Positions 8,046 to 37,170 of a stretch of DNA of 64,000 nt are shown here, piece by piece. Source of the DNA: Candidatus Aenigmatarchaeota archaeon (GTDB lineage Archaea; Aenigmatarchaeota; Aenigmatarchaeia; CG10238-14; SpSt-28). Location of the stretch: the NCBI GenBank assembly GCA_038997165.1, contig JAWBAK010000002.1, positions 3,083 through 67,082 of the forward strand. Reading direction: 5' to 3'. Positions within the stretch are counted from its first letter, which is position 1, and each line of letters begins with the position of its first letter. Position numbers and translations under genes: made by a program. The notes under the pieces are model-generated. The model was not told where the DNA came from. It did not search any database and saw only the letters and a list, made by a program, of their open reading frames with translations.

Positions 8046-8187
8046 CCCCCGGTAGCTCAGCGGTGGAGCGCCCGGCTGTAGATCTTTGCTAAATAAGCAA
8101 AGGGAGCAGTCGGCGCTCCCACACGGTTTAATGATAAGATGATTAACAGAAACCGGGAGGGCGTGGGTTCAAATCCCACCCGGGGGA
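8046..8187 (+). tRNA. tRNA-Tyr (anticodon GTA) with ~70-nt intron at canonical 37/38 position
   Basis: Acceptor cccccgg/ccggggg, D-arm gctc/gagc, anticodon stem cccgg...ccggg with loop ctGTAg interrupted by ~70 nt (approx 8082-8151), T-arm gtggg-ttcaaat-cccac, discriminator A. Exons sum to ~72 nt. Confidence 0.75.
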
Positions 8188-18000: not shown

Positions 18001-19917
18001 ATTTTATCTATAAATTCTAGTGAAACTGCCACATTCTATATCGAAATTATTGCATTTGGGGAAAATTTAAATGGATATCTATTAGATAAATTTTATTCTG
18101 GTTTTTTAATTAGGCCATTAGAAAAAATAAATAGAAATGGTTGCGATGATATAAGAAGCGAAGACACTTTTTTAAATCCATTTATTAGGAATCATTGTTT
18201 TATAGATGAAAAGAATCAAAAAGATTTAGCAATAAATAAAAACGAAAAAATTAAATTTTTGGCAATCGCTTATGCAGGTGCTACATTAGATAAAAATATT
18301 TCAGTAAATGTAACTATAAATGTAACAGATGACTCTAATCTTACTATTTTTCAGAATACATCAAGTTTTAAAGATTTAATAAATTTTGAAATATTTAATT
18401 TCACAAAAAAAGGATTATATTTAATTAACTTAACTTTTGAGTTTAATAATATAACTAAAATAGAAACTTATAATTTAAGTGTTTATGAATTAAACTTTTC
18501 TATACAAATACCTAAAAATTACACCAAAGTTAATGATATATTAAGTATTTTTATTTTTGTTAATAGAACAAATGGAATTTCTGAAGAAATAATAAATAAC
18601 ATAACTTCTATATTTCTTTTAACACAAAATGCTAAAATAAAAAATTATAGATATGATAAATCATTACAAAAAATAGAAATTAACATTTCTTTTTCTAATC
18701 CATTTTTTGGAGATATAACTTTAAAAATTGAAGACGAATTAGGAATAGAAAGTAATATAACTATTAGAAATCTTACAGCATATCATTATGAAATTGAAAT
18801 TTCTTATCCAGAAACAGTATTCGTAGATATGGTATTTGCAGTAAAGGCTAGTTCTAAATTATTGCCCTCAAATATAAATATTCAAGCAAATTATACTATA
18901 GAGTATAGTGGAACGTGTTCTTTAGTTTCATCGAAAAATATTTTAAATACTAAAGAGGCATCTTTCATATTTAATGCAACTGATATTGGTGAGTGTAGTA
19001 TTAATATTAATTCAAACGCTACTTATTTAGATCTATTTTTTGAAAGTTATGGTCAAGCAAAAATTTCTATTTTATCTCCTCCTAAAAAAACAGAACCAAT
19101 AGAACTTCCTCAAATTCAACAATTAGCATTACTTATAAGAAAAGCTTCGGATATAATTGAAATAAAGGAAAATTCCTGGAACACAACTGTAATTTTTGTA
19201 AAAAGTATTGGTAGGAATATGAATGTTTCAGCAAAAATATTAAATTATCCAGAACATTTAGTTCAAATAATTCCTCCTAAACAATTAATCGAAGCTGATA
19301 AAGAAGGAATATTTTTGTTTAACATTTCTTTAGATAAAAATGAGACAAGAGAAGAATTTAACATAACTATTTTGTTTAATGGAAGTTTTATTACTAATAA
19401 AACTGATTTAAAGATTAAAGTTTTACGATTAAAGATAGAGGACAAAAAAATAGAATTAGAAAACGAAATTAGAGAATTGGAGAACGAAATTTCTGAATTA
19501 GAAAACAAAATAATAGAATTAAACCAAAGAGAATTATTAGACGAAATTTTAAATATAAAAAATTTGTTAGATTTAGCAAAAGAAGAGTTAAATAAAGGAA
19601 ATATAGCAAAAGTAATGGAAATTATTAACGATATAAAAAATTCAATAAACTATATAAAAAATTCAATAAACTATGTTAAGAATAAGTTAAATGAACAGCA
19701 AACAAAAGTAATGGAAAAACCAAACAATTTTACATTTTTATTAATAATTTTATTAATTATTGCTGGAATTTCTGCAATAATTTTTGTATTATTTATATAT
19801 CCAAAACTTAAATTTAAAAAACCATATTATGATATTAAAAAACAAAAATTTGTTTGGACAAAAGAAGATGAATCTGTTTGGGAAAAGCTGAAAGAAAAAT
19901 GGAGGAAAAAACAATAA
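15067..19917 (+). CDS. giant subtilisin-like (S8) serine peptidase, surface-anchored (1616 aa)
   Basis: Signal peptide, S8 catalytic triad motifs 'ILDTGIDIYHQD', 'HGTHVAGIIAA', 'GTSMSTPFVSGALA'. Then ~1100 aa with dozens of NxS/T sequons, coiled-coil 'ELENEIRELENEISELENKIIEL', and a C-terminal TM helix plus basic tail. Confidence 0.8.
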   Translation: MINKRISFALIFFLTFLFIELSFSNSAYLIQKEKLDEILKNNNFIILSKIKCYFDKICALDKPIKGFESYFFEDKKIFKIHRLESLSIIDAYRVWNTSFENLNLTGNSVKIAILDTGIDIYHQDLNYSLDSWKCFYSINENVIENDWSYCNDDNGHGTHVAGIIAARYLGNISKCFEGYPCGIAPNATLFIAKVFDSNGYAYLIDILNALEWAVNNSVDIVSMSFGIDLSSFGLNSCYPLGNSSLEKAIYLFNSLLDEISIKYNIIFVASIGNNPNSISSPACAKNVIGVGAINKNKNIAYFSSRGPIDNRIKPDIVAPGVNINSTFPINSYKSLSGTSMSTPFVSGALAILIEALRENNISYSSQELKAILLTSPNEEFRNNIFGSGVLNVTELIRIRNNFLTLNIEKNETLRFKVNKTDNYPFKFTIYRHERFEDLNLVRVRIIKDNNVIFESETFDNVFQYKNNSLSGEFYIDVDIKIINKSNTSNKQLNLFTFTFSHKVLNLTEYLEENLNNSVVSMLNVIIDSPIELKLNLANRTIRIFIRDFSGNPIVADKINITILNISDKIVNTTAYFNKSEINFTLPPNLNENYYKLYVIAEKEKRFGIAYINFTYFSFEFLSPREILKVMNGDILNITLRFNYTNISVSQAYLYLENNTNKNISLNFSKENSIISNITLINLEEAGKYYLFLNISLDENNGEYFILNLPLIEFSPIFDYNISYLKNLFADKEYVFNVSIFHINGTKLQINKTLCIENSTTKIFCNSTIDDSVRILTNVSFEGFYNLTINVLHNSNYLNKSFPIKIEFEPNILIIELEKSTFTIFERLNLSARLINSTKNSECTFCKIFVNMTDSEGRVIFLNKELEEIKNIKIPKDFKKGVYNLTLFSKINPIIINTTQINVETLDISTNVSEMIFPNYHNVTINISISENANVSINITKYNVSGIFQIVLDPSNIIDGCTPEINSEGILWCNQTNNIILSINSSETATFYIEIIAFGENLNGYLLDKFYSGFLIRPLEKINRNGCDDIRSEDTFLNPFIRNHCFIDEKNQKDLAINKNEKIKFLAIAYAGATLDKNISVNVTINVTDDSNLTIFQNTSSFKDLINFEIFNFTKKGLYLINLTFEFNNITKIETYNLSVYELNFSIQIPKNYTKVNDILSIFIFVNRTNGISEEIINNITSIFLLTQNAKIKNYRYDKSLQKIEINISFSNPFFGDITLKIEDELGIESNITIRNLTAYHYEIEISYPETVFVDMVFAVKASSKLLPSNINIQANYTIEYSGTCSLVSSKNILNTKEASFIFNATDIGECSININSNATYLDLFFESYGQAKISILSPPKKTEPIELPQIQQLALLIRKASDIIEIKENSWNTTVIFVKSIGRNMNVSAKILNYPEHLVQIIPPKQLIEADKEGIFLFNISLDKNETREEFNITILFNGSFITNKTDLKIKVLRLKIEDKKIELENEIRELENEISELENKIIELNQRELLDEILNIKNLLDLAKEELNKGNIAKVMEIINDIKNSINYIKNSINYVKNKLNEQQTKVMEKPNNFTFLLIILLIIAGISAIIFVLFIYPKLKFKKPYYDIKKQKFVWTKEDESVWEKLKEKWRKKQ

Positions 19918-21898: not shown

Positions 21899-22363
21899 AT
21901 GAAATCAAAAGCTCAAGCAGCTTTAGAGTTTTTAATGACATATGGTTGGGCAATATTGCTAGTAATAGTAGTAGTAGGAGCACTTTATGCAACAGGGATG
22001 CTTAAGCCATGTAGATGGGTAGGATTACAAGCAAAGGAATTTCCACTAAGTGAGGTAAGAGTAGTACCAATAAGATTAACAAAAAATGATTTAGTATTTG
22101 AAGTTTATTATCAACAAGCAGGTAATGCTGAATATGTAAGTGTTTCAATTTCAGGAACAGCAGATGGAAAATCTGTAACTATAGGTAATATAACAAATAC
22201 TACCTATTCATTTAGTTCCACAAGCCCAGTAACAATTACAGTATCTCTTTCAGAATTAAGTGGTGGAGAATGTGCGGATTTTGATATAACAATAGAATAT
22301 ATAAAACCAGGAGCAACAGCAACGAGCAAAGTTAGTGGAAAAATAACAGGACCTGTAAGTTAA
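21899..22363 (+). CDS. archaeal type IV pilin-like protein with class III signal peptide
   Basis: 'MKSKAQAALEFLMTYGWAILLVIVVVGALYA' is the canonical archaeal prepilin N-terminus (K-A-Q|A-ALEFLMTYGWA). The rest is a Thr/Ser-rich beta domain. Confidence 0.6.
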   Translation: MKSKAQAALEFLMTYGWAILLVIVVVGALYATGMLKPCRWVGLQAKEFPLSEVRVVPIRLTKNDLVFEVYYQQAGNAEYVSVSISGTADGKSVTIGNITNTTYSFSSTSPVTITVSLSELSGGECADFDITIEYIKPGATATSKVSGKITGPVS

Positions 22364-25253: not shown

Positions 25254-25817
25254 ATGAGTTTAATTGAGAAGTTTAAAAAGTTTTTTCTTAGAAAGAAAAG
25301 TTCCCTAGAAGCTCTTCAACAAAGCGACGAAACTCTAGAAAAAAAGACAAATATAGAAGAAAATATTTTAGAAAGAAATAATGAATTAGGTTTGATAGAT
25401 GAAAAATTCTTATATGGATATATTTTAAAAACTCTAAAATCTATTGAAGAAAGTTTAAAGAGAATAGAGTACAACATGGTAACAAAAGATTGGGCAGCTT
25501 TAAATTTATCAGAAAAGAAGGACATTGAAAATTTGTTAAACAAATTAGACGAAAAAATAGAGAACATAAAATTTATTTTACCATCTGCTTCAAGCGCTTT
25601 AAGCAGATCGAGCAGATCAAGTGAAATTATTAAGAAAGCCGTTGAAATAATAAGGGAAAGAAAAGAAATAAGTTATGAGGATTTAGCTAGGGAATTAGGA
25701 ATTTCAAATAGTTATTTGAGAGCAATAGCTAGTTTGATAGAGATGAATAATCCAAATATAAAAAGAAATATAAGAGATAAGAAAGGATATTTTATATACT
25801 TTGAAAAAATAGATTAG
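25254..25817 (+). CDS. hypothetical protein with C-terminal HTH domain; contains in-frame copy of the local palindromic repeat
   Basis: C-terminal 'ISYEDLARELGISNSYLRAIASLIE' HTH. The linker 'SASSALSRSSRSSE' is encoded by gcttcaagcgctttaagcagatcgagcagatcaag, which is related to the downstream intergenic palindromes. Confidence 0.4.
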   Translation: MSLIEKFKKFFLRKKSSLEALQQSDETLEKKTNIEENILERNNELGLIDEKFLYGYILKTLKSIEESLKRIEYNMVTKDWAALNLSEKKDIENLLNKLDEKIENIKFILPSASSALSRSSRSSEIIKKAVEIIRERKEISYEDLARELGISNSYLRAIASLIEMNNPNIKRNIRDKKGYFIYFEKID

Positions 25818-25835
25818 TAAAATACTTTTAGAATT

Positions 25836-26090
25836 GCTTAAGCGCTTAAGCAGTTCAAGCATGTTGACTAGTTACTTTTAAAAATTTAAAAATTAATATA
25901 TGGTTCGTAAGCCTACGATATTATCTAAATTAATCATGAAATTCTTTAATTTATAATTAAATGTTTTAATTCTTCAAATAGAAATGCTTTAACTGCTTGA
26001 AGCGCTTGAAGCGCTTATAAGCATAAGCAGCAAAAGAAATTTTGAAATATTTCTTCTGCTTAAGCGCTTAAGCAGATCAAGCAGTTAATA
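25836..26090. repeat. cluster of palindromic elements: two perfect 16-bp palindromes GCTTAAGCGCTTAAGC (25836-25851, 26058-26073), each followed by CAG(T/A)TCAAGCA...TTGAC, plus a composite variant (25995-26030)
   Basis: Read directly. Each element is its own reverse complement. A related copy lies in-frame inside the CDS at 25587-25621. Confidence 0.8.
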
Positions 26091-26166
26091 TATTGACAAA
26101 ATTAAATATAATATCACTAAAAAATAAAATATTTTATTTCTAAATGATAATTATATAACTTTTAGA

Positions 26167-26412
26167 AATTCTCACATTTTATATTATACTTTCATTTATA
26201 TTTTATAGTTAGTTTTATATCGAGAACTATCTCACATTTATTTTAATATTTGTAAAAGCTCTTTTTAAACAATTTAGAAGAATTATCTCTCACGTTTATA
26301 ATGAGAAACTAAACAAATTTAAAATTTAGATTTTTAAGTTCTAAATAGTATTAAACAAATTTTATTATTCTATAGTGGCAAACTATCTTTAGTCTTCTCT
26401 CACATTTTACAG
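26167..26412. repeat. iteron-like motif (a)T(T/A)TCTCACATTT(T)A x4 in direct orientation (starts ~26173, 26232, 26291, 26399), first three with exact 59-bp spacing, plus one inverted copy at 26808-26826
   Basis: Motif occurrences read directly. Only the ~10-12 bp core is conserved; flanks are not. Confidence 0.6.
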
Positions 26413-27253
26413 AAAAATAACTAGTAACTATTTTTAAATAACTATTATTAAACAAATTACTTATTCATAGATAGTACTAGAAAAGTCAATTTTTTATCAT
26501 TATTTATGAATTTAAAACATAAAGTAAAAAATTATATACTCAATTATATATAATTTTTTGTATAAATTATTAAAAGGTACTAAATAATTTACTTAAAAAA
26601 TAGTGAAAATATTATAAAAAACAGCATTCCATTATTATTATTCTTCTATAGATTTATTTAAATTATTTTTAATTTTTTTATATGTATAAACTTTTTATAT
26701 TTTAAACTTAACTTTAAATCTCTTTAAATATAGCTTTATCGTAAAAATATACCTTTAAAAATTTATAGCTGGCTCTGTAGACCAGTTATAAATTTTTAGA
26801 ATTTAAAAAAATGTGAGAGTTTTTAATTTATTTATTTACTTAATAGTAATTGTTAATAGATTTAAAGAATAAATAAAAAATATTCTGAAAATTAGTGAAC
26901 AAACTTTTTTCTAATATTTGTTAAAATGTTTATTATCCAGATGGCGCATCTATAAGATTCGAGAATTTTATTTTTTATGTCTTTTGTTTTTTCGAAAATA
27001 ATAAATATCTTAAAAGATAAAAGATTATAACTATACAAAACAAAAATATATGCTTATTTCTAAGAAGGAACTTAATAAAAAATTGAAATTAAAAATTTCA
27101 AAGTACAAAAATCAGAAATTATATTGCAAACTATCCTTTTTATAAGAATTGCGATATAAAAGTAAAAAATATTACTAATACTTAAATGTCATATTGGTAA
27201 GAGTGAAAAATTAAAAAAAGAAATATATGAAAGATATTTGGTACTTCTTTCTA

Positions 27254-28069
27254 CTAGTATCTATAGTTTTGATAAATCTGTTTAACTCTATTTTCTAGTT
27301 CATGCACCAAATCTTTTACTGTTCTAGAAGAGAGTAATACTTTTTCTATCTTTTTAAATTCTTTATTTATATCATATGATTTTTCTATACACTCTAAAAT
27401 ATCTTTTACAATATCAATAGAGGGTATGTTTTTTGCATTTAAGTTTTCTGATATTTTTATTGTACCTAACCAAGCATATATTTCACTTAAATTTCTGAAA
27501 TTCTCTGCTTTCTCTTGAATGCTTCTAAAGTGTAAAATAAAGCTTATAAAATTCAAAATAATAGTAATGATTGTAAAAATTGAATATGTTTCTTTACCAT
27601 TTATTATTTCTTTAAATGTTTGTACAAGGTTGTTTAAACTATTTTCATAATTTTTCAAAGCGTTTTTAATTTCGTTTGATGCTAATGAATTCAAAATATA
27701 CTTTGCGTGCATTAGTTCGTGAGGTAATGTTTCAACATCTTTACCATCGATCTTTACATAATCCTTTATTATAAGAATAATTGATCCTTCTTTATATAAT
27801 AGTGGGATTGTTATACCACCCAATTGTATAGAGTTATAAATTAATTCTGATATTATTAGATTTGCTCTATAAACTTCTGTATTTTTAGTAACGTTCTCAT
27901 CTAGATCAATACCTTTACTAGCAAGTTTATTTACGGCATTTTTTACTTCCTCTTTTGAAACTCTCTCAACCAAACCTATTTTTTCTGCTTTTTCAAATAG
28001 ATCTTCTATTAAATCTTTATTTTCTTTTCTTATATGGTTTGCATGTATTGTAGGTATATTATCATTCAT
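27254..28069 (-). CDS. HExxH-motif membrane-associated protein, hypothetical metallopeptidase
   Basis: 'ETLPHELMHAKYILN' followed by a TM segment 'YSIFTIITIILNFISFILHF'. Confidence 0.3.
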   Translation of the reverse strand: MNDNIPTIHANHIRKENKDLIEDLFEKAEKIGLVERVSKEEVKNAVNKLASKGIDLDENVTKNTEVYRANLIISELIYNSIQLGGITIPLLYKEGSIILIIKDYVKIDGKDVETLPHELMHAKYILNSLASNEIKNALKNYENSLNNLVQTFKEIINGKETYSIFTIITIILNFISFILHFRSIQEKAENFRNLSEIYAWLGTIKISENLNAKNIPSIDIVKDILECIEKSYDINKEFKKIEKVLLSSRTVKDLVHELENRVKQIYQNYRY

Positions 28070-28184
28070 AAGTAATTATATTAGATTTGAAAATATATAT
28101 TTTTTATTGATAACTATGAATGTTAAACATCTAAAATAAATTAAAAATCCCTCTTTATAATTTTTTTAAAATTATATAATATTT

Positions 28185-28310
28185 ATGGAACACGCTTCAA
28201 TTAAAACTGCTATTTTTATTGGTATTGCAATTTTAATAATTTTATTTTTCATAATAATAGGTATTTACTATTTTAAAATTTTATCAACGCAAGTAGCTAT
28301 TACCCCATAA
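28185..28310 (+). CDS. tiny single-pass membrane protein 1 of 7 (41 aa)
   Basis: Hand translation gives MEHASIKTAIFIGIAILIILFFIIIGIYYFKILSTQVAITP. It is the first of seven tightly packed same-strand mini-ORFs. Confidence 0.3.
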   Translation: MEHASIKTAIFIGIAILIILFFIIIGIYYFKILSTQVAITP

Positions 28311-28312
28311 AA

Positions 28313-28489
28313 ATGCCTATAGAAATATCAACAGAATTGCTTTATATATTAATTTTTTTCTTGATAATTGTAGCAGTAATATTAACTTTTATTTTTTCTG
28401 GTTTCGATATCAATAGAATGCAAGAAAGTATTTCAAGTTTTTGGGATAGTGTAGATAGATTTGCTAAGAAAATATTTGGAGAAAAATAA
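28313..28489 (+). CDS. tiny single-pass membrane protein 2 of 7 (58 aa)
   Basis: MPIEISTELLYILIFFLIIVAVILTFIFSGFDINRMQESISSFWDSVDRFAKKIFGEK. Confidence 0.35.
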   Translation: MPIEISTELLYILIFFLIIVAVILTFIFSGFDINRMQESISSFWDSVDRFAKKIFGEK

Positions 28490-28491
28490 TT

Positions 28492-28677
28492 ATGGAAGTA
28501 AATTTTTTGATCCTAATAATTCTAGGTATTATAATTTTTTCAATTATTTTAATTGTAATATTTTCTATGATTTGGCCTTCGAAGTTTTCTACATTTTTAA
28601 AAGAAGCATGTTTATTAACAGTTGGAAAATTTTTTGCACAACCATATATATGTGAAGCTTTTAGAGTAGCAGAATGA
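28492..28677 (+). CDS. tiny single-pass membrane protein 3 of 7 (61 aa), CxnC tail
   Basis: TM helix, then 'EACLLTVGKFFAQPYICEA'. Paralogous to protein 4 ('EFCKITIGNIPFIGEGVCET'). Confidence 0.4.
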   Translation: MEVNFLILIILGIIIFSIILIVIFSMIWPSKFSTFLKEACLLTVGKFFAQPYICEAFRVAE

Positions 28678-28865
28678 TTCCGATAAGAACTCTTATAATA
28701 ATTTTTTTAATAATTATTGCAATTATATTTTTAATTTCGATTATCTTTGCATTTTTTAAGGGTGGAGGAGTAGCTCAAGTTTTTTATGAATTTTGCAAAA
28801 TAACTATTGGCAATATTCCATTTATTGGAGAGGGTGTTTGCGAAACTTTAATAAAAGAGATATAA
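28674..28865 (+). CDS. tiny single-pass membrane protein 4 of 7 (63 aa), CxnC tail
   Basis: Overlaps the previous stop (ATGA). TM helix + 'FFKGGGVAQVFYEFCKITIGNIPFIGEGVCETL'. Confidence 0.4.
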   Translation: MIPIRTLIIIFLIIIAIIFLISIIFAFFKGGGVAQVFYEFCKITIGNIPFIGEGVCETLIKEI

Positions 28866-28876
28866 AAAAATAATTT

Positions 28877-29038
28877 ATGGAGCAAACGATTTGGATAATA
28901 ATTCTTATAGTTATTGCAATTCTTTCGTTTATTGTAATATTGAGCATAATATCTTTAGCAAGAGAAGGTGGAATGAGAAGTTTAGGAGATTTGTTTAATT
29001 TATCTAAATTTTTGGAAATTGTTGGAATAAAGAAATGA
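28877..29038 (+). CDS. tiny single-pass membrane protein 5 of 7 (53 aa)
   Basis: MEQTIWIIILIVIAILSFIVILSIISLAREGGMRSLGDLFNLSKFLEIVGIKK. The GG motif after the TM matches protein 4. Confidence 0.35.
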   Translation: MEQTIWIIILIVIAILSFIVILSIISLAREGGMRSLGDLFNLSKFLEIVGIKK

Positions 29039-29187
29039 TAGAGGATGAATTATGGATAGTTTTAGGAATTATTTTATTAATAATAGTTGGAATTTTAATT
29101 TATCTAGCTATAACTAATCCAAAATTTCAAGAATTGATAAAGAATATGATATGGAATCTCAAAATTCCAAAACCTTGGAAAAAATAA
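29035..29187 (+). CDS. tiny single-pass membrane protein 6 of 7 (50 aa)
   Basis: MIEDELWIVLGIILLIIVGILIYLAITNPKFQELIKNMIWNLKIPKPWKK. Start overlaps the previous stop (ATGA). Confidence 0.35.
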   Translation: MIEDELWIVLGIILLIIVGILIYLAITNPKFQELIKNMIWNLKIPKPWKK

Positions 29188-29188
29188 T

Positions 29189-29314
29189 ATGCAAATACCA
29201 ATTAAAATAGTAATTATTATAATAATTTTAATAATTTTAATTACTTTTGCAATCTTTTTTGCAACTTTTTTAAAATCTTCTATTGCTAATATTTTATCTC
29301 AAATATTTGGTTAA
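29189..29314 (+). CDS. tiny single-pass membrane protein 7 of 7 (41 aa)
   Basis: MQIPIKIVIIIIILIILITFAIFFATFLKSSIANILSQIFG. Confidence 0.3.
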   Translation: MQIPIKIVIIIIILIILITFAIFFATFLKSSIANILSQIFG

Positions 29315-31305
29315 ACTTGAACTATTGTTTCTATCATTGGAGTTAATATTAGTGAACTAAAGAGAACTGTTAATATATATAATATTAGTGATATTATCAA
29401 TGTTTTCGAAAGAAAAGAAAGAAAATTATATCTTTCTAATCCACTTTCTAAACCGACAATTAATAAACTTGAAATTATTATCATTTCAACCAAATAAATA
29501 CCTAATGAAAAAGTTATAGATCCAAAAGAAATTGAACTTACTGTAGATGCAGAAATAAATGGAATACCAGTTAAAGGTAAAGCTTCTGTTGATTCCTGAG
29601 TTGGAAGTTCTCCAATACTAAAGAATACTTTAATAATTAGAGATAATAGAATAATTACTAATGAAATTCCAGTTCCAATTATAATTGGCATTAAGAATGT
29701 TATTATAAATTTTAGATTATTTACGTTATCACTTATTAATTCTTCAATCTTTGCTTGAAGTTTAAAAAGGTTAGATAAATATTCAGAAATTATTATCATA
29801 GTATCTCCAGCAAATCTATATCCTTTTTTATAACTTTCGATTATAATTTCAAAAGAATTTTTTATAATACTTGATGGATATATTTTTATTATTTTTTCTA
29901 TTGATTCTTTTAAATTTCCACTATAGGATAATATTGATAACAATTTTTCAAATAATTTTCCAATTTCAAATTTTTTATATCTTTCAATTCCTTTATTAAT
30001 TGCAATCTCTAAAGGATTTCCAGCTCTTAAATAATAACCTGTTTGATACAATACTGTTGGAAATTCGCTTTCTATTTTTTCAATAATTTTTCTTTTTAAT
30101 AAAATATTTCTTAATGCAAAAATTAAAATTAGTGAGATTGGAACAAACAATAAAAATAATGATGAAATTGCAAGAAAAACTAATGTAAAATTATCTCTTA
30201 ATAATTCCTCACACTCTTCTTTACTTAATGTCAAATCTTTTGGTTTTGTTTTAAATTTTGTATTTGCCCATTCTACACATTTTTCAAAATTATAATTTAG
30301 TGAAATAAAATTTGGAAGAGTTAAAGAGGAAAGAATTAATGATATTAAAATTCCAACAAAAATTAAATTAATTTTAAAGTTAGAAAATTTTATTTCTAAA
30401 GGATTTTCTATAAGAAGAAAGGAAATTGTTAATGGTCTAGAAGTTATTAAAGTTATTATTACTAGAAATAAAATTATTGGTAAAATTACATTGAAAACTA
30501 TTACTAAAGTTGTGAAAGAAAAAATTTGAGGGAAAAAAATAGAAAATAGTGGTAAAATAGTTAAAGAAAGTAAAGGCAAAATTACACCTAATCCTAAAAT
30601 AATTGTTGATGGTAATTTTAAACTTCTCGCATATTTTTCCATTCTTTGAAAATTTTCTTCATGCATTACTCTTATCGCTTCTTTTATTAAATTTTCTGAA
30701 GAATATGGATTTTCACTATATGCTATCAATAATTTTAATGCTTCGCAAAATTCTTTCGCTTCTTTATACCATCTTTCGATTATTTCATTTAAACCTTCTT
30801 TAATTGTAGTTTCTCCAACTAAAAATTTAGCTAAAATTCTTTTAAAATCTTTTCCAATTTCACCACTTAAATTACTCGCAACTAAAACAACAGCTCTTTC
30901 TAAATTTGGAACTTGTTTTAAAGAAATACTCATATATATAATTGCATGCATCATTTCGCTAGAGGCAAAATTTCTAATTAGTTTAGCTTTAAGAAATGGA
31001 TAATAATATATTAAAAATGAAATTAAGGATAATAATATAAAAAAAATAAAAGATATTGAGAATCCTAATGAAAAAGCTAATATTGCAATTCCTATTATTC
31101 CAAAAAGAAAAATTAGAATTGCTGCAGAAAAATTTGAAGCTGGAGGTATTCTTAATCTACAAAATTTATTAACTTCATTATATAACTCTTCTTCTTCTTT
31201 TGGAATTTTAATTTTTATTATTTGAAAACTAAAATTACAAAGTAATTCGTAAAAAGAAAGTTTTTTGGATTTTTTATATTCTTCAATAATTTGGTTTACA
31301 TCCAT
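29311..31305 (-). CDS. TadC/FlaJ-like (T2SS-F family) polytopic membrane platform protein candidate
   Basis: 664 aa. Two ~130-170 aa helical cytoplasmic segments alternate with TM bundles. These are 'NLERAVVLVASNLSGEIGKDF...' and '...TVLYQTGYYLRAGNPLEIAINKG...'. The second carries the GspF/TadC-like 'L..aG.pl..Al' motif. The assignment is by pattern only. Confidence 0.4.
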   Translation of the reverse strand: MDVNQIIEEYKKSKKLSFYELLCNFSFQIIKIKIPKEEEELYNEVNKFCRLRIPPASNFSAAILIFLFGIIGIAILAFSLGFSISFIFFILLSLISFLIYYYPFLKAKLIRNFASSEMMHAIIYMSISLKQVPNLERAVVLVASNLSGEIGKDFKRILAKFLVGETTIKEGLNEIIERWYKEAKEFCEALKLLIAYSENPYSSENLIKEAIRVMHEENFQRMEKYARSLKLPSTIILGLGVILPLLSLTILPLFSIFFPQIFSFTTLVIVFNVILPIILFLVIITLITSRPLTISFLLIENPLEIKFSNFKINLIFVGILISLILSSLTLPNFISLNYNFEKCVEWANTKFKTKPKDLTLSKEECEELLRDNFTLVFLAISSLFLLFVPISLILIFALRNILLKRKIIEKIESEFPTVLYQTGYYLRAGNPLEIAINKGIERYKKFEIGKLFEKLLSILSYSGNLKESIEKIIKIYPSSIIKNSFEIIIESYKKGYRFAGDTMIIISEYLSNLFKLQAKIEELISDNVNNLKFIITFLMPIIIGTGISLVIILLSLIIKVFFSIGELPTQESTEALPLTGIPFISASTVSSISFGSITFSLGIYLVEMIIISSLLIVGLESGLERYNFLSFLSKTLIISLILYILTVLFSSLILTPMIETIVQV

Positions 31306-31340: not shown

Positions 31341-34046
31341 ATGAAATTATTAGAAGAAGTTGCAATAAGATTTTTAATAGGTATATTTATTGCATCTCTT
31401 ATAGGTTTTTTATTTTGGTGGTTAGTTATTCATAATGAAACAGATAGAATTGTTGAAAGAAATTTTCAAAAATTTTATTCTGCATTAGATGAAGCATGTT
31501 CTAGAAGATCTACAATAAATAATCCTACAAAAGTTTATGTAGAAATTCCTCAAAAAAGATTTCAAAATCCATTCGAAGCAGGAATAAATTGGTTAAAAGA
31601 AAAATTAGGAATTCCAGTTCCATTTACTGCTTTTCAAGATCCATATTATAATTTTCATTGGGAATTTTTTCCGCCAGAACCACCATATACATTTGGACAA
31701 GGTATTCCAGAATCTTTAGCTGCATTTTTTATTCCATGGAGCGAAGATTTACCTTGGAGTTCTAATTTAATATTAACTATGGCTTTTAATGCATATGCTT
31801 TGGGATTAGATATGTTTGAAGCAGTAAAGCAACTTGAAAAAGCAAAATCTAAAGCTTATTTATCTATAAAACACAAAATGTCTAATTTTGGGAAAAAAAT
31901 TCTTAATAATTTCGATGAAATAAAAATAATTGTTAAAGCGGTAAATGAAATGGAAGAATATATTAAAAAAGTTGGAAACTATGTTATTAGAGTAAAAGGT
32001 ACTGCAATAAAAATTGCAGATGTTAGTGGAAAAATTATTCATGAAATTAAATTTATATCTAAAGTAACCACAATGTATGCATTATTTTGTCTAGCAATAG
32101 AAGATAAAACTTTAGGAGAATGTTTTACTGAAGGAGTAATTTTTGGAGTAGGTGCAGATGTAGGTAAATTAATAATGAAAAATGTTGTTTTTCCTCGTAT
32201 AAAGAAAAAATTAGAAATTTATTATTCAATTACTGTTGGAAAAATTAAAAAAGGTTTTTCAGAATTTTTAGAGTATGTTTCTGACGAAGTAAAATCGATA
32301 AAATATAAATTTCTTGGAATGGAAAATATTGTTGCTGAAAATATAGATGAAATAAATAAATTAACCGATGACATTAAAAATCTTGTAGATGATGCCAAAA
32401 AATTATTAAATGAGGGAAAAAATTCTGAAGCTCTTAGCAAAATAAATGAAGCAAAAGGAAAATTAAAGGCAATTTCTTCATTAATTGAAGATACTTCTAA
32501 AAAAGCACCACCAGACTACTTTTCGGCTTTATTCTTTACACAAATTGAAATTGAAAAACTACAAGATGAAATAAATGATATAATAAAGAGATGTCCTGAA
32601 GATTTAATAAAAGATATTTCAAAAGGTTTTGTTGAACTAGATTCTCTAGTTAAATCTACAGAAGAGTTACACGATGATATTCATACAAAATCTACAAAAA
32701 AAGTTTTAGAGAGAAAAGGATTTAATTTTGAGTATGATGAAAAATTAAAAAGAAATGTATATGTATTAACAGAAGAAAGTAATAAAGATTTATTTAATGA
32801 ATTTAAAGAAGCAATAGAAGCTAGAAAAGCGATGGGAGAAACAATTTATAGTTATGGAGATTTTAAATTTCAATATGATGAAAAAGGAAACTTAATAAAA
32901 GTTATTTACGATCCATTTGATCCAGATAGCATTACAAATACTATAAAAGAAGGTATTTTGGGTTATCCAAAAAAATTTTTGGCATATTTAGAAGAAAAGG
33001 CATTTATTCATAATAAATTAGTAGATGGAGATGCTGTTGCTAAAGTATTAGAAGATATGAAAGATGATCTTCAAAGAGATGAAAACTTAAGAAAAAGATT
33101 ATTAGAAGCATTTAAAAAAATAGGACATGAAATTGATGAAGATGAATTAATTTATAGAATTGACGATACTATAAGAAAGTATAAAGCTGGAGAAAATTTA
33201 GTATTAGTTGTAGAAAAAAATAGTGAATTAGGAAAACTCTTTGATAAATTACCAAGCGACATTTCTTCACAAGATCTTTCACATTATATTAGAAAAGCAA
33301 TTTATGATGCTATAAAACAAGGTGATGATACTGAATTAAAAAATTTATATGGGTTGATAAATGGAAAAACTTTAAGAATTAAAGAAGATATGGAAATATT
33401 TTTTAGAAGAGGTGTTATAGGATATGCTGCCTTAAGAGCTATTGATTTATACACACCTTTAGGAGCAAGTTGGTGGGATAAATATATTTCTTACTATGGT
33501 TATGAAGGTCAAAAAATTCCTGTAGGATGTCAAACTCAATGTGATGAAGGAAAAATTTGTTTGCAGTTAGGAGCATGCATTAGACAATTTGATTTACCCG
33601 AAAGCTGTCAAAAAATTGGTATAAAAGATGTAAAAATAAAAAGAAATAGTATTGTTGCAAATGATCCAAGATTTTATTTAGTTAGTCCATGCTATGCTGA
33701 ATTAGAAATTTTTATTGATAATTCTGATGCAATACTATTTATTCTTCCAAAAATAGATAAAAATAGGTTAAATGAACCAAATTATTGTTATGCAACAGAG
33801 AATTTTGTTAATTGGTACATAGGTACTTATATTGCTCAATATACAACTAGATGTGTGGGAGCAATAGGTTGCGCTATACTAACTGGTGGTCTTGGAGCTA
33901 TAGATGCTGTTTTGGCATGTTTATTTGGAGCTGCAGGAGGTGTTTGTGGAGTTGTTGTAGATTTAATAGATTTAGCGTTTTCATTTTTAAAAGAATCTAC
34001 TTTTATTTGGCCAACAGTTTATCAAACTTATCCTTGGTTAGCATGA
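31341..34046 (+). CDS. large (901 aa) membrane-anchored coiled-coil / Cys-rich protein, hypothetical; first gene of six-gene coupled operon
   Basis: N-terminal TM, long helical middle, Cys-rich segment (CQTQCDEGKICLQLGACIRQ...), C-terminal Gly/Cys-rich hydrophobic segment. No P-loop seen. Confidence 0.45.
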   Translation: MKLLEEVAIRFLIGIFIASLIGFLFWWLVIHNETDRIVERNFQKFYSALDEACSRRSTINNPTKVYVEIPQKRFQNPFEAGINWLKEKLGIPVPFTAFQDPYYNFHWEFFPPEPPYTFGQGIPESLAAFFIPWSEDLPWSSNLILTMAFNAYALGLDMFEAVKQLEKAKSKAYLSIKHKMSNFGKKILNNFDEIKIIVKAVNEMEEYIKKVGNYVIRVKGTAIKIADVSGKIIHEIKFISKVTTMYALFCLAIEDKTLGECFTEGVIFGVGADVGKLIMKNVVFPRIKKKLEIYYSITVGKIKKGFSEFLEYVSDEVKSIKYKFLGMENIVAENIDEINKLTDDIKNLVDDAKKLLNEGKNSEALSKINEAKGKLKAISSLIEDTSKKAPPDYFSALFFTQIEIEKLQDEINDIIKRCPEDLIKDISKGFVELDSLVKSTEELHDDIHTKSTKKVLERKGFNFEYDEKLKRNVYVLTEESNKDLFNEFKEAIEARKAMGETIYSYGDFKFQYDEKGNLIKVIYDPFDPDSITNTIKEGILGYPKKFLAYLEEKAFIHNKLVDGDAVAKVLEDMKDDLQRDENLRKRLLEAFKKIGHEIDEDELIYRIDDTIRKYKAGENLVLVVEKNSELGKLFDKLPSDISSQDLSHYIRKAIYDAIKQGDDTELKNLYGLINGKTLRIKEDMEIFFRRGVIGYAALRAIDLYTPLGASWWDKYISYYGYEGQKIPVGCQTQCDEGKICLQLGACIRQFDLPESCQKIGIKDVKIKRNSIVANDPRFYLVSPCYAELEIFIDNSDAILFILPKIDKNRLNEPNYCYATENFVNWYIGTYIAQYTTRCVGAIGCAILTGGLGAIDAVLACLFGAAGGVCGVVVDLIDLAFSFLKESTFIWPTVYQTYPWLA

Positions 34047-34462
34047 TCAAAATAAAAAAATTAAAATTATCTGCATTTATAACTTATTTAGTTTTATTTT
34101 TTTCAATGATTTTTGTTATAATTTTTTTATATTTAGGAATTAACATTCTTTTGATAAATATTTATAAAAACAATTTTTTTATTTCAAAAAGTACTTCTGA
34201 ATTTCTTTCTGCAATTATGAATTCTTTATTTTCTTCTACAAATAATATTACTATAGAAATTACATTTCCAAAAGAAGAAATGGAAATATATTTTTTTGAT
34301 GAGAATATAACTGTAAAGAAAGGAAAAGAATTTTTTTCTTCAAAAATTTTTAAACCAAGTTATATTAATTTTAATGTTTCAAATAATGTTATAAAAACAA
34401 CATCGTTTTATAATACAAAAATTCTAATAATAAAAGTAAACGATGAAATAAAAATAATATGA
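34043..34462 (+). CDS. N-terminally anchored small protein (operon gene 2), hypothetical
   Basis: Start ATG overlaps the upstream TGA (ATGA). 'MIKIKKLKLSAFITYLVLFFSMIFVIIFLYLGI' TM, then a polar domain. Confidence 0.4.
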   Translation: MIKIKKLKLSAFITYLVLFFSMIFVIIFLYLGINILLINIYKNNFFISKSTSEFLSAIMNSLFSSTNNITIEITFPKEEMEIYFFDENITVKKGKEFFSSKIFKPSYINFNVSNNVIKTTSFYNTKILIIKVNDEIKII

Positions 34463-34854
34463 AATTGCAAATTTCATTTATTCCAGAATCAATGTTAGAT
34501 GTTTTAACTTTAATAATTGTAATTTCTATGACATTTGGAATGTATATTTTATATACAGAATATAAATTAATTTTAAAAAGAGATGAAAATTTAGATTTTC
34601 AAAATTATAATTTTGCTCAAGTTTTTATTGGAGATAAATGTATACTTTATAATAATATTAGCAAAGGAATTTTAGATTATAATAAAATAAAAAATAAACA
34701 AAGTTGTTTAAATTTAGAAAAAAATATAAGCATTATTTTAAATTCGGAAAAAATTGTTTATAATAACGATTGCGATTTTTCTAATACAAAAGTTATAATT
34801 CCGATAATAGTTTTTAAAGAAAGTTTTCAAGAAGCAAAATTAATAATATGTTAA
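34459..34854 (+). CDS. N-terminally anchored small protein (operon gene 3), hypothetical
   Basis: Overlapping start/stop. TM 'VLTLIIVISMTFGMYILY'. Confidence 0.4.
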   Translation: MKLQISFIPESMLDVLTLIIVISMTFGMYILYTEYKLILKRDENLDFQNYNFAQVFIGDKCILYNNISKGILDYNKIKNKQSCLNLEKNISIILNSEKIVYNNDCDFSNTKVIIPIIVFKESFQEAKLIIC

Positions 34855-35243
34855 TTCCAAAAATAATTACAACATTTTTAACATTAATTTTTTCAATTAT
34901 AGCTTTTTCTTTTGTTTATTTTTTATTGCAAAATTTACCAAAAGCAAAAGTAGAAATACAATATAAATTAAGAGAGGAAAATCCTTTTTCTTCTCATCTA
35001 TGTCAAGTATTTTTAAGTTCAGATGAAATAAAAGAACTAATTATAAAAACAATTAAAAAAGAAAATATTGAAAATTCTAAAGCATTAATTTTAGATAGGC
35101 TTTCTAATTTAATTGAAGATAGAGGATTTGAAATAGTAATTTCAAACGAAAGTATAAAAAAAGGAGCTTTATCGTATGAAGATATATATTCATGCTACTT
35201 TTTTTATAATAAAAAATTGTATGAAATAATAATAAAAATATGA
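34848..35243 (+). CDS. N-terminally anchored small protein (operon gene 4), hypothetical
   Basis: 7-nt overlap with the previous gene. TM 'ITTFLTLIFSIIAFSFVYFLL'. Confidence 0.4.
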   Translation: MLIPKIITTFLTLIFSIIAFSFVYFLLQNLPKAKVEIQYKLREENPFSSHLCQVFLSSDEIKELIIKTIKKENIENSKALILDRLSNLIEDRGFEIVISNESIKKGALSYEDIYSCYFFYNKKLYEIIIKI

Positions 35244-35608
35244 AAACATTAATTGGAAATTTAATATTATTTTTATTACCTTTAGTACTTTTTATAATTG
35301 CTTTTTATTTAACGGCAGGTATTTTAAGTAGAGAAATAAGTGTTATAGATATTTCTTCTAAAATTTTTAATGTAATAAATGAAGCTGAAATTTATAAACA
35401 ACAAATAAGAAATATTACGTTAGAAAAACTAAAAGAAAATAATAATTTAAAAGAATTTTCATTTAGTGGATATTATACTTTTTTCAAAATTTCAATAATT
35501 GAAAGAGATAATTCTCAAATAAAAATAGAAGTTTTTGGATATCCAAAAGAGGAAATAATTGGTATAAGACTGATTATTCATTATATCGATGAAATAAAAT
35601 TATGGTAA
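35240..35608 (+). CDS. N-terminally anchored small protein (operon gene 5), hypothetical
   Basis: ATGA overlap. TM 'LILFLLPLVLFIIAFYLTAGIL'. Confidence 0.4.
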   Translation: MKTLIGNLILFLLPLVLFIIAFYLTAGILSREISVIDISSKIFNVINEAEIYKQQIRNITLEKLKENNNLKEFSFSGYYTFFKISIIERDNSQIKIEVFGYPKEEIIGIRLIIHYIDEIKLW

Positions 35609-36810
35609 ACGAACTCTTAATATTTTTATTGATTATTTTTATAGTTATATCTGTAATTACTTATTTTATTATCTCTACAATAACTAAAGTAGAAATTAAA
35701 GAATATGTTCCAAGAATTATTTTTTCGAGAGATGCTTTTTTAGATATTAATTTTCTTTTTTCCGATTTTGATGGAAAATCTTCTGAATACAATTATGCAT
35801 TTTACATTCAAAATAATTTTTTAAACACATTAAATTTAAATATTTTTTCAGAATTTTTAATTTTAGATGAAAATGTAAAAATTTCTTTATATAAAGAAGA
35901 GTTTTCTGATTTATTAGCTTCTAATGTTAAAAAGAGATATGATATTTCATTTAAAAATATTTTTGATAATTCAAAGATTAGCGGATTAAATTTTTGTGAA
36001 GAGGAGAGAAAAGCTATTTTAGGCTGTAAATATGAATGTTGTAAAGGAGATAATATAAATGATGGAATTTGTTGGAAAGATTGCAAAATTTATAAATTAG
36101 ATCTTTCTGAGAAAAAAAGAAATCTTTATTGTCAAATTTTTCCAATTATTTATACTTCAATAAACTATTCGGCTATTATAAATGGAACTGTTGAAATTAG
36201 TAAAAATACTTATGAAGATAGAATTAAATGGAATGTAAGAAAATCGCCAATTAATATTTTTGTAAGACCATCTCCAATACCATATAATAATCTTTTACCT
36301 TTAATGCTTACTTTTGAAATAGAGGGGGAAAATGTGTTTCTAAGAAAGTTAAGGCTAGAAATTATAAATTATTCTATTGAAATTGAAACTTTTTTTGAGA
36401 AAAAGATAGAAAGTTTAGAAGCATCACAAATTTGCGAAATAGAAGTAAATAGATTTATTAATGGAAAAGTATATCTTGGAAAAGAAAAGAATTGTACTTT
36501 TGAACCTTTAAACATTACAGTTAAAAGAATTTTAAAAGATAGAGTTGAAGAAAAAATAGCAACCAAAAATGAAGATATAAACAAATTAATAAATTCTGTT
36601 TGTAAAGAATATATTTCTGATGGAAAAATAGACTATGAAAACTGTGCAAAAGAATTAAATAAAAGAGAATATAATATTTGTAGTTTATATAGTGATTTAG
36701 AAATTTGTAAAATTGGAGAAGAAAAGTTAAATAAAATAATTATTCTTATTTCAGCTGAAATTGAAAAGAGAGAAGAATATAGAAAAAAATTAATACCAAC
36801 TTTTTGTTAA
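35602..36810 (+). CDS. N-terminally anchored Cys-rich extracellular protein (operon gene 6, 402 aa), hypothetical
   Basis: TM 'LLIFLLIIFIVISVITYFII'. Cys cluster 'CEEERKAILGCKYECCKGDNINDGICWKDCK' plus later Cys pairs. Confidence 0.4.
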   Translation: MVNELLIFLLIIFIVISVITYFIISTITKVEIKEYVPRIIFSRDAFLDINFLFSDFDGKSSEYNYAFYIQNNFLNTLNLNIFSEFLILDENVKISLYKEEFSDLLASNVKKRYDISFKNIFDNSKISGLNFCEEERKAILGCKYECCKGDNINDGICWKDCKIYKLDLSEKKRNLYCQIFPIIYTSINYSAIINGTVEISKNTYEDRIKWNVRKSPINIFVRPSPIPYNNLLPLMLTFEIEGENVFLRKLRLEIINYSIEIETFFEKKIESLEASQICEIEVNRFINGKVYLGKEKNCTFEPLNITVKRILKDRVEEKIATKNEDINKLINSVCKEYISDGKIDYENCAKELNKREYNICSLYSDLEICKIGEEKLNKIIILISAEIEKREEYRKKLIPTFC

Positions 36811-37170
36811 TTACTTTATTTTACAGCCACAAAGCTTTACTAAACAATCTTTAAAAGATCTTAAACCCAAATAATTACATATATTTTTGTAACTTGCAAA
36901 ATCATCTCCATCTTTTACACCAATATCTTTATTCTTGATTTTTGATGATAAATCATCTTCTGAAATTCCAAGATCATATGGACTACTTACTTCAATTGCT
37001 AAACATTTTGTTTTATCAACTATTTCCGAACAAAATATACTTTTTATATTTTCTCTTTTCATCCAATCTAAAGGGCTACTTCCTATTCCTAGCCAAGATA
37101 AAACAAAAAGTGCTGTTACTATTAAAATTACAATTATTATTATTATTTCTAGTGTTGTTAAAACTTTCAT
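36811..37170 (-). CDS. small N-anchored Cys-containing secreted protein, hypothetical
   Basis: 'MKVLTTLEIIIIIVILIVTALFVLSWLG' TM, then a domain with 5 Cys. Confidence 0.35.
   Translation of the reverse strand: MKVLTTLEIIIIIVILIVTALFVLSWLGIGSSPLDWMKRENIKSIFCSEIVDKTKCLAIEVSSPYDLGISEDDLSSKIKNKDIGVKDGDDFASYKNICNYLGLRSFKDCLVKLCGCKIK

Follow-up and report, generated by a model that had tools for sequence, protein, structure and literature searches.

A conserved block of seven mini-protein genes in a lineage-specific type IV filament cluster of Aenigmatarchaeota

We analysed a 64,000-nucleotide stretch (the window) of the genome of a Candidatus Aenigmatarchaeota archaeon, an uncultivated hot-spring organism (assembly GCA_038997165.1, contig JAWBAK010000002.1, positions 3,083 to 67,082), which has a GC content of ~23% and carries the archaeal markers FtsZ, aIF5B, S19e, primase and a presumably intron-containing tRNA. 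Our subject is an array of seven open reading frames (ORFs) on the plus strand at 28185-29314, here called mini1 to mini7, which converges on a minus-strand gene for a 664-aa polytopic membrane protein at 29311-31305 (the platform gene). All seven ORFs start with ATG, and together they occupy 98.6% of the interval: mini1 (28185-28310, 41 aa), mini2 (28313-28489, 58 aa), mini3 (28492-28677, 61 aa), mini4 (28674-28865, 63 aa), mini5 (28877-29038, 53 aa), mini6 (29035-29187, 50 aa) and mini7 (29189-29314, 41 aa). Their junctions, in order, measure 2, 2, -4 (ATGA), 11, -4 (ATGA) and 1 nt. The initial annotation of this DNA had described seven back-to-back ORFs of 41-63 aa with overlaps or 2-12-nt spacers; coordinates and shuffle statistics agree with it, the actual spacers of 1-11 nt and two ATGA overlaps lying near that range. 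It had also found five of the ORFs missing from the ORF track, which is purely an effect of a 60-aa cut-off that leaves two of the seven visible. All seven are present in the gene calls of the identical public contig, and six of the seven exact sequences occur in the protein collection; every named NCBI entry is a 'hypothetical protein'. None of the minis matched Pfam, NCBIfam or PHROGs at any curated cut-off.

The products share one architecture, in which 4-7 N-terminal residues are followed by a single hydrophobic stretch of 22-24 residues, starting at residue 4-8, and then by a polar or amphipathic tail. Best 19-residue Kyte-Doolittle means of 3.3-3.7 bear out the ~22-aa hydrophobic helix with short polar tail that had been noted for each ORF. 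Mini1 consists of MEHASIK, the transmembrane helix and a tail beginning YYFKILS, and its orthologues conserve an ME(Q/E)..K N-terminus. In mini2 the helix lies between MPIEISTELLY and an amphipathic tail. The tail of mini3 bears the invariant Cys40 and Cys54 (KEACLLTVGK...ICE), and its AlphaFold2 (AF2) model, with a mean predicted local distance difference test score (pLDDT) of 83, comprises three helices, namely a transmembrane helix at residues 3-27 and two short Cys-bearing helices. Mini4, whose start overlaps the mini3 stop, is a mini3 paralogue with its cysteines at positions 41 and 56. Mini5 is the best conserved mini, with 83% identity to its counterpart at the related locus L003, and its tail, ..GG.RSLGDLFNLSKFLEIVGIKK, contains an N-[LI]-S sequon conserved in the clade. 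The first residues of mini6, MIEDELW, are identical in all six orthologues of the window clade and read MDDEFW at the distant locus L013; most mini6 orthologues have a basic KIPKPW tail. The mini7 stop overlaps that of the platform gene. A TATA-box-like element, TTTATAAT (28154-28161, plus strand), was spotted by eye 24-31 nt upstream of the mini1 ATG and is a possible promoter of a leaderless transcript from mini1.

In a genome of 22% GC, T-rich sequence readily yields frames rich in Ile, Leu and Phe, which raises the possibility that the minis are chance ORFs or that the opposite strand is the coding one. With the base composition of 28185-29314 the probability of a stop is 0.095 per codon, and 2,000 shuffles of the same bases gave a mean of 0.36 such ORFs and a maximum of 3, against the 7 observed, with a mean coverage of 4.7% and a maximum of 41% against 98.6%. 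The reverse strand contains a single ORF of at least 30 aa. Orthologues of all seven minis, 1:1 and in unchanged order, are present at L002, L003, L005, L010/L014 and L011, and partial sets of five and four are found at L009 and L007, respectively. This order is constant down to 54% platform identity. Lack of conservation in close relatives, named in the initial annotation as the finding that would speak against the array, is thus not what we observe, and the mini-ORF arrays that it proposed to look for beside TadC-like genes in relatives do occur next to platform homologues. The proportion of nonsynonymous differences (pN) was below that of synonymous differences (pS) for every mini compared with L003 and with L005, and for six of the seven compared with L002, from which mini2 shows zero synonymous differences; computable dN/dS values were ~0.03-0.48. 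Shuffles, frame-specific conservation and orthology together exclude the chance-ORF reading, to which we give practically no weight. Since the orthologues keep their order and pN is below pS, the seven minis are real genes, conserved 1:1 and under purifying selection. Between the window and L002 the minis differ more than the neighbouring platform, with identities of 85-98% compared with 98%. Relative to L003, mini identity (48-83%) is similar to that of the platform (72%) and exceeds that of a 901-aa neighbour (43%).

The seven products had initially been taken for a diversifying family of paralogues, and a multiple alignment had been suggested. When the alignments of the seven orthologue groups were compared by hhalign, kinship of mini3 and mini4 was the sole outcome (probability 96.9%, E value 1.4e-10, 54 columns). 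All other pairs scored 2.5-64% and aligned over little beyond the hydrophobic helix. The mini4-mini5 pair reached just 18%, and a kinship marked by the GG motif following the helix, said to link these two, is not supported. DNA repeats within the array amount to 72-88% matches of short AT-rich stretches, mostly helix-coding, and therefore give no sign of a recent duplication. A single paralogous family of seven is ruled out by these two comparisons, each mini forming a separate 1:1 orthologue group. As judged by profile and nucleotide comparison, the array is made up of seven distinct families of common architecture and is not a diversifying family.

The motif first proposed for mini3 and mini4 fared better. 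Both proteins share E.C..T.G...CE with two cysteines, although the consensus as originally written was wrong by a one-residue indel. The common core is C..T.G, and the two invariant cysteines are 9-14 residues apart. This family is small: 18 proteins were retrieved by a word-indexed profile search of 5.8 billion sequences, and 16 representatives when 1.84 billion proteins were scanned exhaustively with HMMER. Where a match has a named source, it is listed as a 'hypothetical protein' and comes from a metagenome-assembled genome (MAG) of Aenigmatarchaeota; none of the family matches has a Pfam domain. At all loci with readable context (12 of 12) the mini3/4 homologue adjoins a platform gene.

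The 664-aa neighbour itself scored slightly below the Pfam cut-off for T2SSF (PF00482; 23.7 bits, E value 5e-5, cut-off 25.2), and five of eleven members of its family match that model. A profile search of PDB sequences gave no match. Its AF2 model (pLDDT 80.3) produced a Foldseek local match to the EpsF cytoplasmic domain 2vma_A with a probability of 0.96, a target-normalised TM-score of 0.71 and a root-mean-square deviation of 3.1 over 118 columns, the global E values being poor. Homologues are 98% identical at L002 (a Candidatus Aenigmatarchaeota MAG) and 72%, 56%, 54-55% and 43-45% identical in related MAGs. In 28 loci an ATPase homologue of ~750 aa lies directly upstream of the platform homologue, and it is assigned to Pfam T2SSE wherever precomputed annotation exists (L008, L012, L013 and the P0016 locus). 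The T2SSF score, the EpsF-like fold and this ATPase pairing, with gene context the most telling of the three, identify the 664-aa protein as a FlaJ/TadC/PilC-type platform. A related ATPase-platform pair (platform identity 25-29%) occurs widely among metagenome contigs with 30-52% GC (L016-L046), mostly without adjacent minis; several of these loci have two conserved divergent genes, of ~210 and ~130-160 aa, preceding the pair.

The fullest arrangement is found at L013, where the platform is 37% identical to that of the window. There a single collinear plus-strand operon encodes the ATPase, the platform and minis 1, 2, 3, 5, 6 and 7, and continues with a small Cys-rich protein, a homologue of the 901-aa protein and five pilin-like proteins of 117-143 aa. 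Portions of the same arrangement occur at L047 and L048. In the window clade, platform gene and minis point in opposite directions and no ATPase gene lies nearby; at L007 the minis lie downstream of the platform gene on the same strand. At L003 the cluster is found in chromosomal DNA, in a syntenic position flanked by S19e and FtsZ. We found no relatives of the cluster on viral contigs and no match in PHROGs, and a provirus or other mobile element is ruled out by the L003 synteny together with the lack of viral-contig relatives. Upstream of mini1 the content differs, with a GC-rich tRNA-like sequence at L005, L011 and L014, a divergent 271-aa gene in the window and a 102-aa winged helix-turn-helix/zinc-ribbon gene at L003, so that the upstream edge of the array is a synteny breakpoint.

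Beyond the platform gene, the cluster of the window continues with further proteins that bear a hydrophobic N-terminus. The 901-aa protein (31341-34046, plus strand) has a transmembrane helix at the N-terminus, a coiled coil in its middle part and a C-terminal third rich in Cys, with a hydrophobic Gly/Cys-rich end. Identity among relatives is 38-43%, and the gene always follows the mini block or the platform (L013 and L047 included). No family matches the protein, which may serve the machine as an envelope or anchor component. Four overlapping genes at 34043-35608 on the plus strand, p139, p131a, p131b and p122, encode proteins of 139, 131, 131 and 122 aa with an N-terminal hydrophobic helix. 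The last plus-strand gene of the cluster (35602-36810) encodes a 402-aa protein with an N-terminal transmembrane helix and a Cys-rich body, and is followed on the minus strand by p119 (36811-37170), a 119-aa pilin-like protein that starts MKV-LTTLEIII and has a Cys-rich C-terminal part.

To compare N-termini we used criteria of the FlaFind type for class III signals (PMC4371748), namely a charged residue at -2, G, A or S at -1 and a hydrophobic domain directly after; below, an arrow marks the putative cleavage site and a hyphen the corresponding position. The ~20-residue N-terminal hydrophobic helix expected of class III pilins is present in all seven minis. In distant orthologues of minis 2, 3 and 7 it is preceded by a leader. 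Mini2 starts MKG↓QKLPFNLTF at L013 and MKG↓ITIHFDLLY at L047, compared with MP-IEISTELLY in the window. For mini3 the starts are MKG↓VMETSVNW and MKS↓SLELSINW at L013 and L047 and MKG↓LELN in P0041, compared with ME-VNF, and for mini7 they are MKKA↓TGIPLK at L013 and MQ-IPIK in the window. The leader thus appears shortened in the window clade, either to Met (+1) or to a form in which G, A or S no longer occupies -1.

The larger pilin-like proteins of the cluster behave similarly. MKG↓I, MKS↓I or MKA↓I begins eight of nine p122 orthologues, the window protein reading MKT; MKS↓ (for example MKS↓SAFITY), MKG↓ or LKA↓ begins six of ten p139 orthologues, and the window has MK-L. p131a starts MKG↓Q at L047 and in the longer ORF of L013 and MKL-Q across the clade, and p131b starts MRKG↓LLPAK at L013 and M-LIPK in the clade. 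Orthologues of p119 start MRG↓LTTIE or MRA↓LTTLE, with Glu at +4 or +5, and three others, the window included, have MKV-, MKL- and MKL-. The -1 residue of these proteins (34043-37170) varies between G/A/S and L/V/T even among close relatives, p119 reading MRG at L003 and MKL in the sister MAG L004. This variation suggests a relaxed or altered processing of three-residue leaders. Because class III-type leaders are found on the larger proteins as well as on distant minis 2, 3 and 7, a shared pilin ancestry follows: judged by their N-termini, the cluster encodes genuine pilin-like proteins, and three mini families (four counting mini4) are of the same ancestry. The connection to a TadC-like gene and type IV pilus biology that had been drawn at the outset is strongly backed by the platform identity, the ATPase-led operons and these leaders, and the class III prediction proposed alongside it succeeds for distant orthologues of minis 2, 3 and 7 and fails for the window minis. 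Outside the cluster, the window also encodes a 154-aa protein starting MKSKAQAALEFLMTYGWAILLV (21899-22363, plus strand), whose class III signal is canonical for archaea (KA↓Q, Glu at +5); by implication, a prepilin peptidase is still required in this genome.

Our best reading is that the seven minis constitute a conserved 'small-subunit block' of a type IV pilus (T4P)-like cluster restricted to one Aenigmatarchaeota/DPANN lineage. With a probability of about 0.5 we take them to be helix-only subunits of pilin type, the size of Flp or EpdE, or else membrane accessories, in a type IV filament machine particular to this lineage. At least minis 2, 3, 4 and 7 would then be helix-only mini-pilins, about as long as a mature Flp pilin or as EpdE/EpdD of Methanococcus maripaludis, and inserted with the tail outside, where the two cysteines of mini3, and likewise those of mini4, could pair in a disulfide. 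The platform, with an ATPase encoded elsewhere, would pull these mini-pilins from the membrane into a short filament, a pseudopilus or a priming complex. Minis 1, 5 and 6, whose N-termini are acidic and leaderless, may be extra subunits or membrane-resident partners of the platform. With the leader of the window clade reduced to Met, or to Met and one residue, the proteins would probably be made without prepilin-peptidase cleavage. A bolder version, which we hold only tentatively and consider unlikely, is that the clade makes 'pre-processed' pilin-like subunits, translated from at or 1-2 residues before the mature N-terminus of their relatives, and that up to seven helix-only subunits are built by the machine into a fibre, a pseudopilus or a priming complex without any cleavage by a prepilin peptidase. 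It is prompted by start positions such as MP-IEISTELLY and MKG↓ITIHFDLLY, ME-VN.. and MKG↓VMETSVN.., or M-LIPK.. and MRKG↓LLPAK.., in the window and in relatives, respectively.

Several observations weigh against mini-pilins as described. Not one of the seven window minis passes the class III motif test (0/7), which the control pilin at 21899-22363 (KSKA↓QAALEF) passes in the same script, and the Pfam models Flp and Class_IIIsignal find no match at threshold. The MKG starts of the distant orthologues are partly ambiguous, as an internal Met in L013 mini3 would give METS... instead. For minis 1, 5 and 6 no consistent leader appears in the lineages examined, single orthologues of minis 1 and 5 alone passing the test; conserved in its place are the acidic N-termini ME(Q/E) in mini1, MEQ.IW in mini5 and MIEDELW in mini6. 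No ATPase was found in the 64-kb window or in flanks of up to 10 kb at the clade loci, as judged by tblastn with the L013 ATPase and by a Pfam scan. Likewise, no A24 prepilin peptidase is encoded in the window (~30 larger ORFs compared with Pfam) or up to 10 kb away at the loci of its clade relatives. Finally, every one of the seven groups has Lys and Arg more often after the helix than before it, and minis 2, 3, 5 and 6 carry a net negative charge at the N-terminus (-3 in mini6). By the positive-inside rule this predicts an N-out/C-in topology, the reverse of that of a prepilin. Indications of the opposite kind come from the Cys pair of minis 3 and 4, which resembles the Cys-rich, presumably extracellular parts of other cluster proteins, and from the mini5 sequon, both of which point to a tail on the outside.

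These opposing topology indications are the main reason why a sizeable minority of the probability stays with a different function, in which all seven minis are membrane-resident accessory subunits that stabilize, align or regulate the platform and never enter a filament. That the window minis have no class III motif and that the charges of minis 2, 3, 5 and 6 favour N-out/C-in fit such a role directly. Each orthologue group moreover keeps its own N-terminal and tail motifs (MIEDELW...KIPKPW in mini6; ...FNLSKFLEIVG), which suggests fixed contacts and not a polymer, and the tightest linkage of the minis is to the platform gene, persisting where the locus no longer includes the ATPase. Makarova et al. 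also record additional membrane proteins at archaeal T4P loci (PMC4858521). However, the orthologues of minis 2, 3 and 7 bear MKG or KKA leaders like those of the pilin-like proteins in the same operon, the paired invariant cysteines of mini3 and mini4 resemble the presumably extracellular Cys-rich parts of other cluster proteins, and helix-only pilins of such a size are known (PMC3875500). Two further functions were considered for the array, and both are highly improbable. A role as genuine Flp/Fap pilins, within a Tad-type system, would account for the size and architecture, which are those of mature Flp, for the adjacent TadC-like gene and for a faint match of mini7 to Pfam Flp1_like (E value 0.013, 15.4 bits compared with a cut-off of 33.5). 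Yet none of the seven minis has a leader or the Flp G/XXXXEY motif, there is no significant match to any Flp family, and the mini3/4 family has only its 16 representatives among 1.84 billion proteins, all those with a named source or a readable context belonging to this archaeal lineage. The motif test thus refutes membership of the window minis in the Flp pilins, and from the 'Flp-like' label of the initial annotation size and architecture survive, but neither a class III or G/XXXXEY motif nor a threshold match in Pfam or NCBIfam. Bacteriocin-, toxin- or holin-like membrane-active peptides that diversify under conflict (the same annotation had raised bacteriocin-like or membrane-active peptides) would likewise be short, hydrophobic and encoded in tandem, and would explain why the minis diverge more than the platform from L002. 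They are difficult to reconcile with gene order and content that stay constant in relatives, strict 1:1 orthology, pN below pS and the obligatory platform linkage. In addition, Pfam scans of the flanking proteins revealed no exporter, immunity or leader-processing family, PHROGs and viral contigs yielded no relatives, and placement in one operon with T4P-like genes is the rule.

Small helix-only pilins have been described in Methanococcus maripaludis, where EpdE (MMP1685) has 74 residues, 62 of them in the mature form, and three other small pilins, including the essential minor pilin MMP1283, have 67-76 residues, 54-63 mature; the pilin ATPase and platform genes of that organism are at other loci (PMC3875500). 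The minis resemble these proteins in being helix-dominated over 40-63 residues, in having no globular domain and in occurring as several species per genome, with a FlaJ/TadC-type platform and an ATPase possibly at another locus. In contrast, Epd pilins have leaders of 5-13 residues ending in Gly, with Gln at +1 and Glu at +5, that are cut by EppA; the minis start with Met and 2-6 residues, and the EppA-type (DUF361-like) features do not occur in those of the window. Partial echoes are seen in KG↓Q of L013 mini2 and in MKG↓Q of p131a orthologues. Epd genes are scattered, unlike the mini block, and their products have no detectable sequence similarity to the minis. Mature Flp pilins are of comparable size (about 45-60 aa), and the Tad pili that they form depend on a TadC platform and a TadV peptidase. 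Helix with short tail, tandem genes and a TadC-like neighbour are common to Flp pilins and minis, which differ in that the minis have no leader or G/XXXXEY motif, are archaeal and are lineage-specific.

A further parallel comes from uncharacterized proteins of DPANN archaea. 'Dark matter' proteins encoded beside a secretion ATPase (called FliI there) and TadC were predicted to be pilins by Makarova and colleagues (PMC6393860), and extra membrane proteins and conserved cysteines have been noted at archaeal T4P loci (PMC6393860, PMC4858521). Like the minis, such predicted pilins are uncharacterized and fast-evolving, with an N-terminal hydrophobic segment, a TadC-like neighbour and often conserved cysteines. 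Their prediction rests on signal peptides of the kind detected by FlaFind, whereas the minis are 41-63 aa long, fall into seven fixed groups and have lost a recognizable class III site. The passages retrieved from PMC6393860, PMC4858521 and a 2026 survey of archaeal type IV filaments (10.64898/2026.04.22.720090) describe neither the mini block nor leaderless forms, and the string 'Aenigmat' is absent from the survey. Minor pilins and pseudopilins (FimU-PilVWXE, GspHIJK) also form fixed sets of differing subunits, each with its own orthologue group, beside the machine genes. Unlike the minis, they possess globular domains of at least 100 aa and canonical class III leaders.

Elsewhere in the window, an AT-rich stretch of 1.4 kb at 25817-27254, downstream of two helix-turn-helix genes, is free of ORFs (no open frame longer than 53 codons) and has a GC content of 13-26% in 200-nt segments. 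It contains a palindrome-bearing element, TGCTTAAGCGCTTAAGCAG(T/A)TCAAGCA, at 25835-25861 and 26057-26083, with a degenerate copy at 26012-26038, and short islands in it are conserved at L003, L005 and L007. A comparison with Rfam gave no credible match; the stretch could be a set of operator sites, contain repeats like those of an origin, or encode an RNA not yet described. At 50995-52392 (plus strand) lies the gene of a 465-aa protein that combines DUF2341 with RCC1 repeats; according to PMC4858521, DUF2341 is associated with PilY-like pilus-tip adhesins of archaeal T4P loci. The 1616-aa subtilase (Peptidase_S8) at 15067-19917 on the plus strand, with an N-terminus resembling a signal sequence, numerous N-x-S/T sequons and a transmembrane helix at the C-terminus, is probably a large surface protease. 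A 142-nt Rfam tRNA match at 8046-8187 (plus strand), which ARAGORN did not report, is presumably a tRNA with an intron; the window also has a gene for a tRNA splicing endonuclease (124-1317).

The mini block is a real, conserved and previously unnamed gene block of a lineage-specific type IV filament cluster, whose most notable feature is that the class III leader appears to have been lost. Four components define a type IV filament system: an ATPase, a platform, subunits with class III leaders and a prepilin peptidase. In the minis and in several of the larger pilin-like proteins of the cluster the leader appears lost or degraded, while relatives retain it. If the minis are still assembled, the peptidase step would be dispensable for some pilin-like subunits, and the pre-processed version, if true, would describe a type IV filament system that bypasses an otherwise universal processing requirement. 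Assembly would also mean that tiny proteins missed by ORF cut-offs, Pfam and NCBIfam are core components of the DPANN surface machinery that is thought to be used for host contact. If they are not assembled, the minis would be new membrane accessory subunits of an archaeal platform protein.

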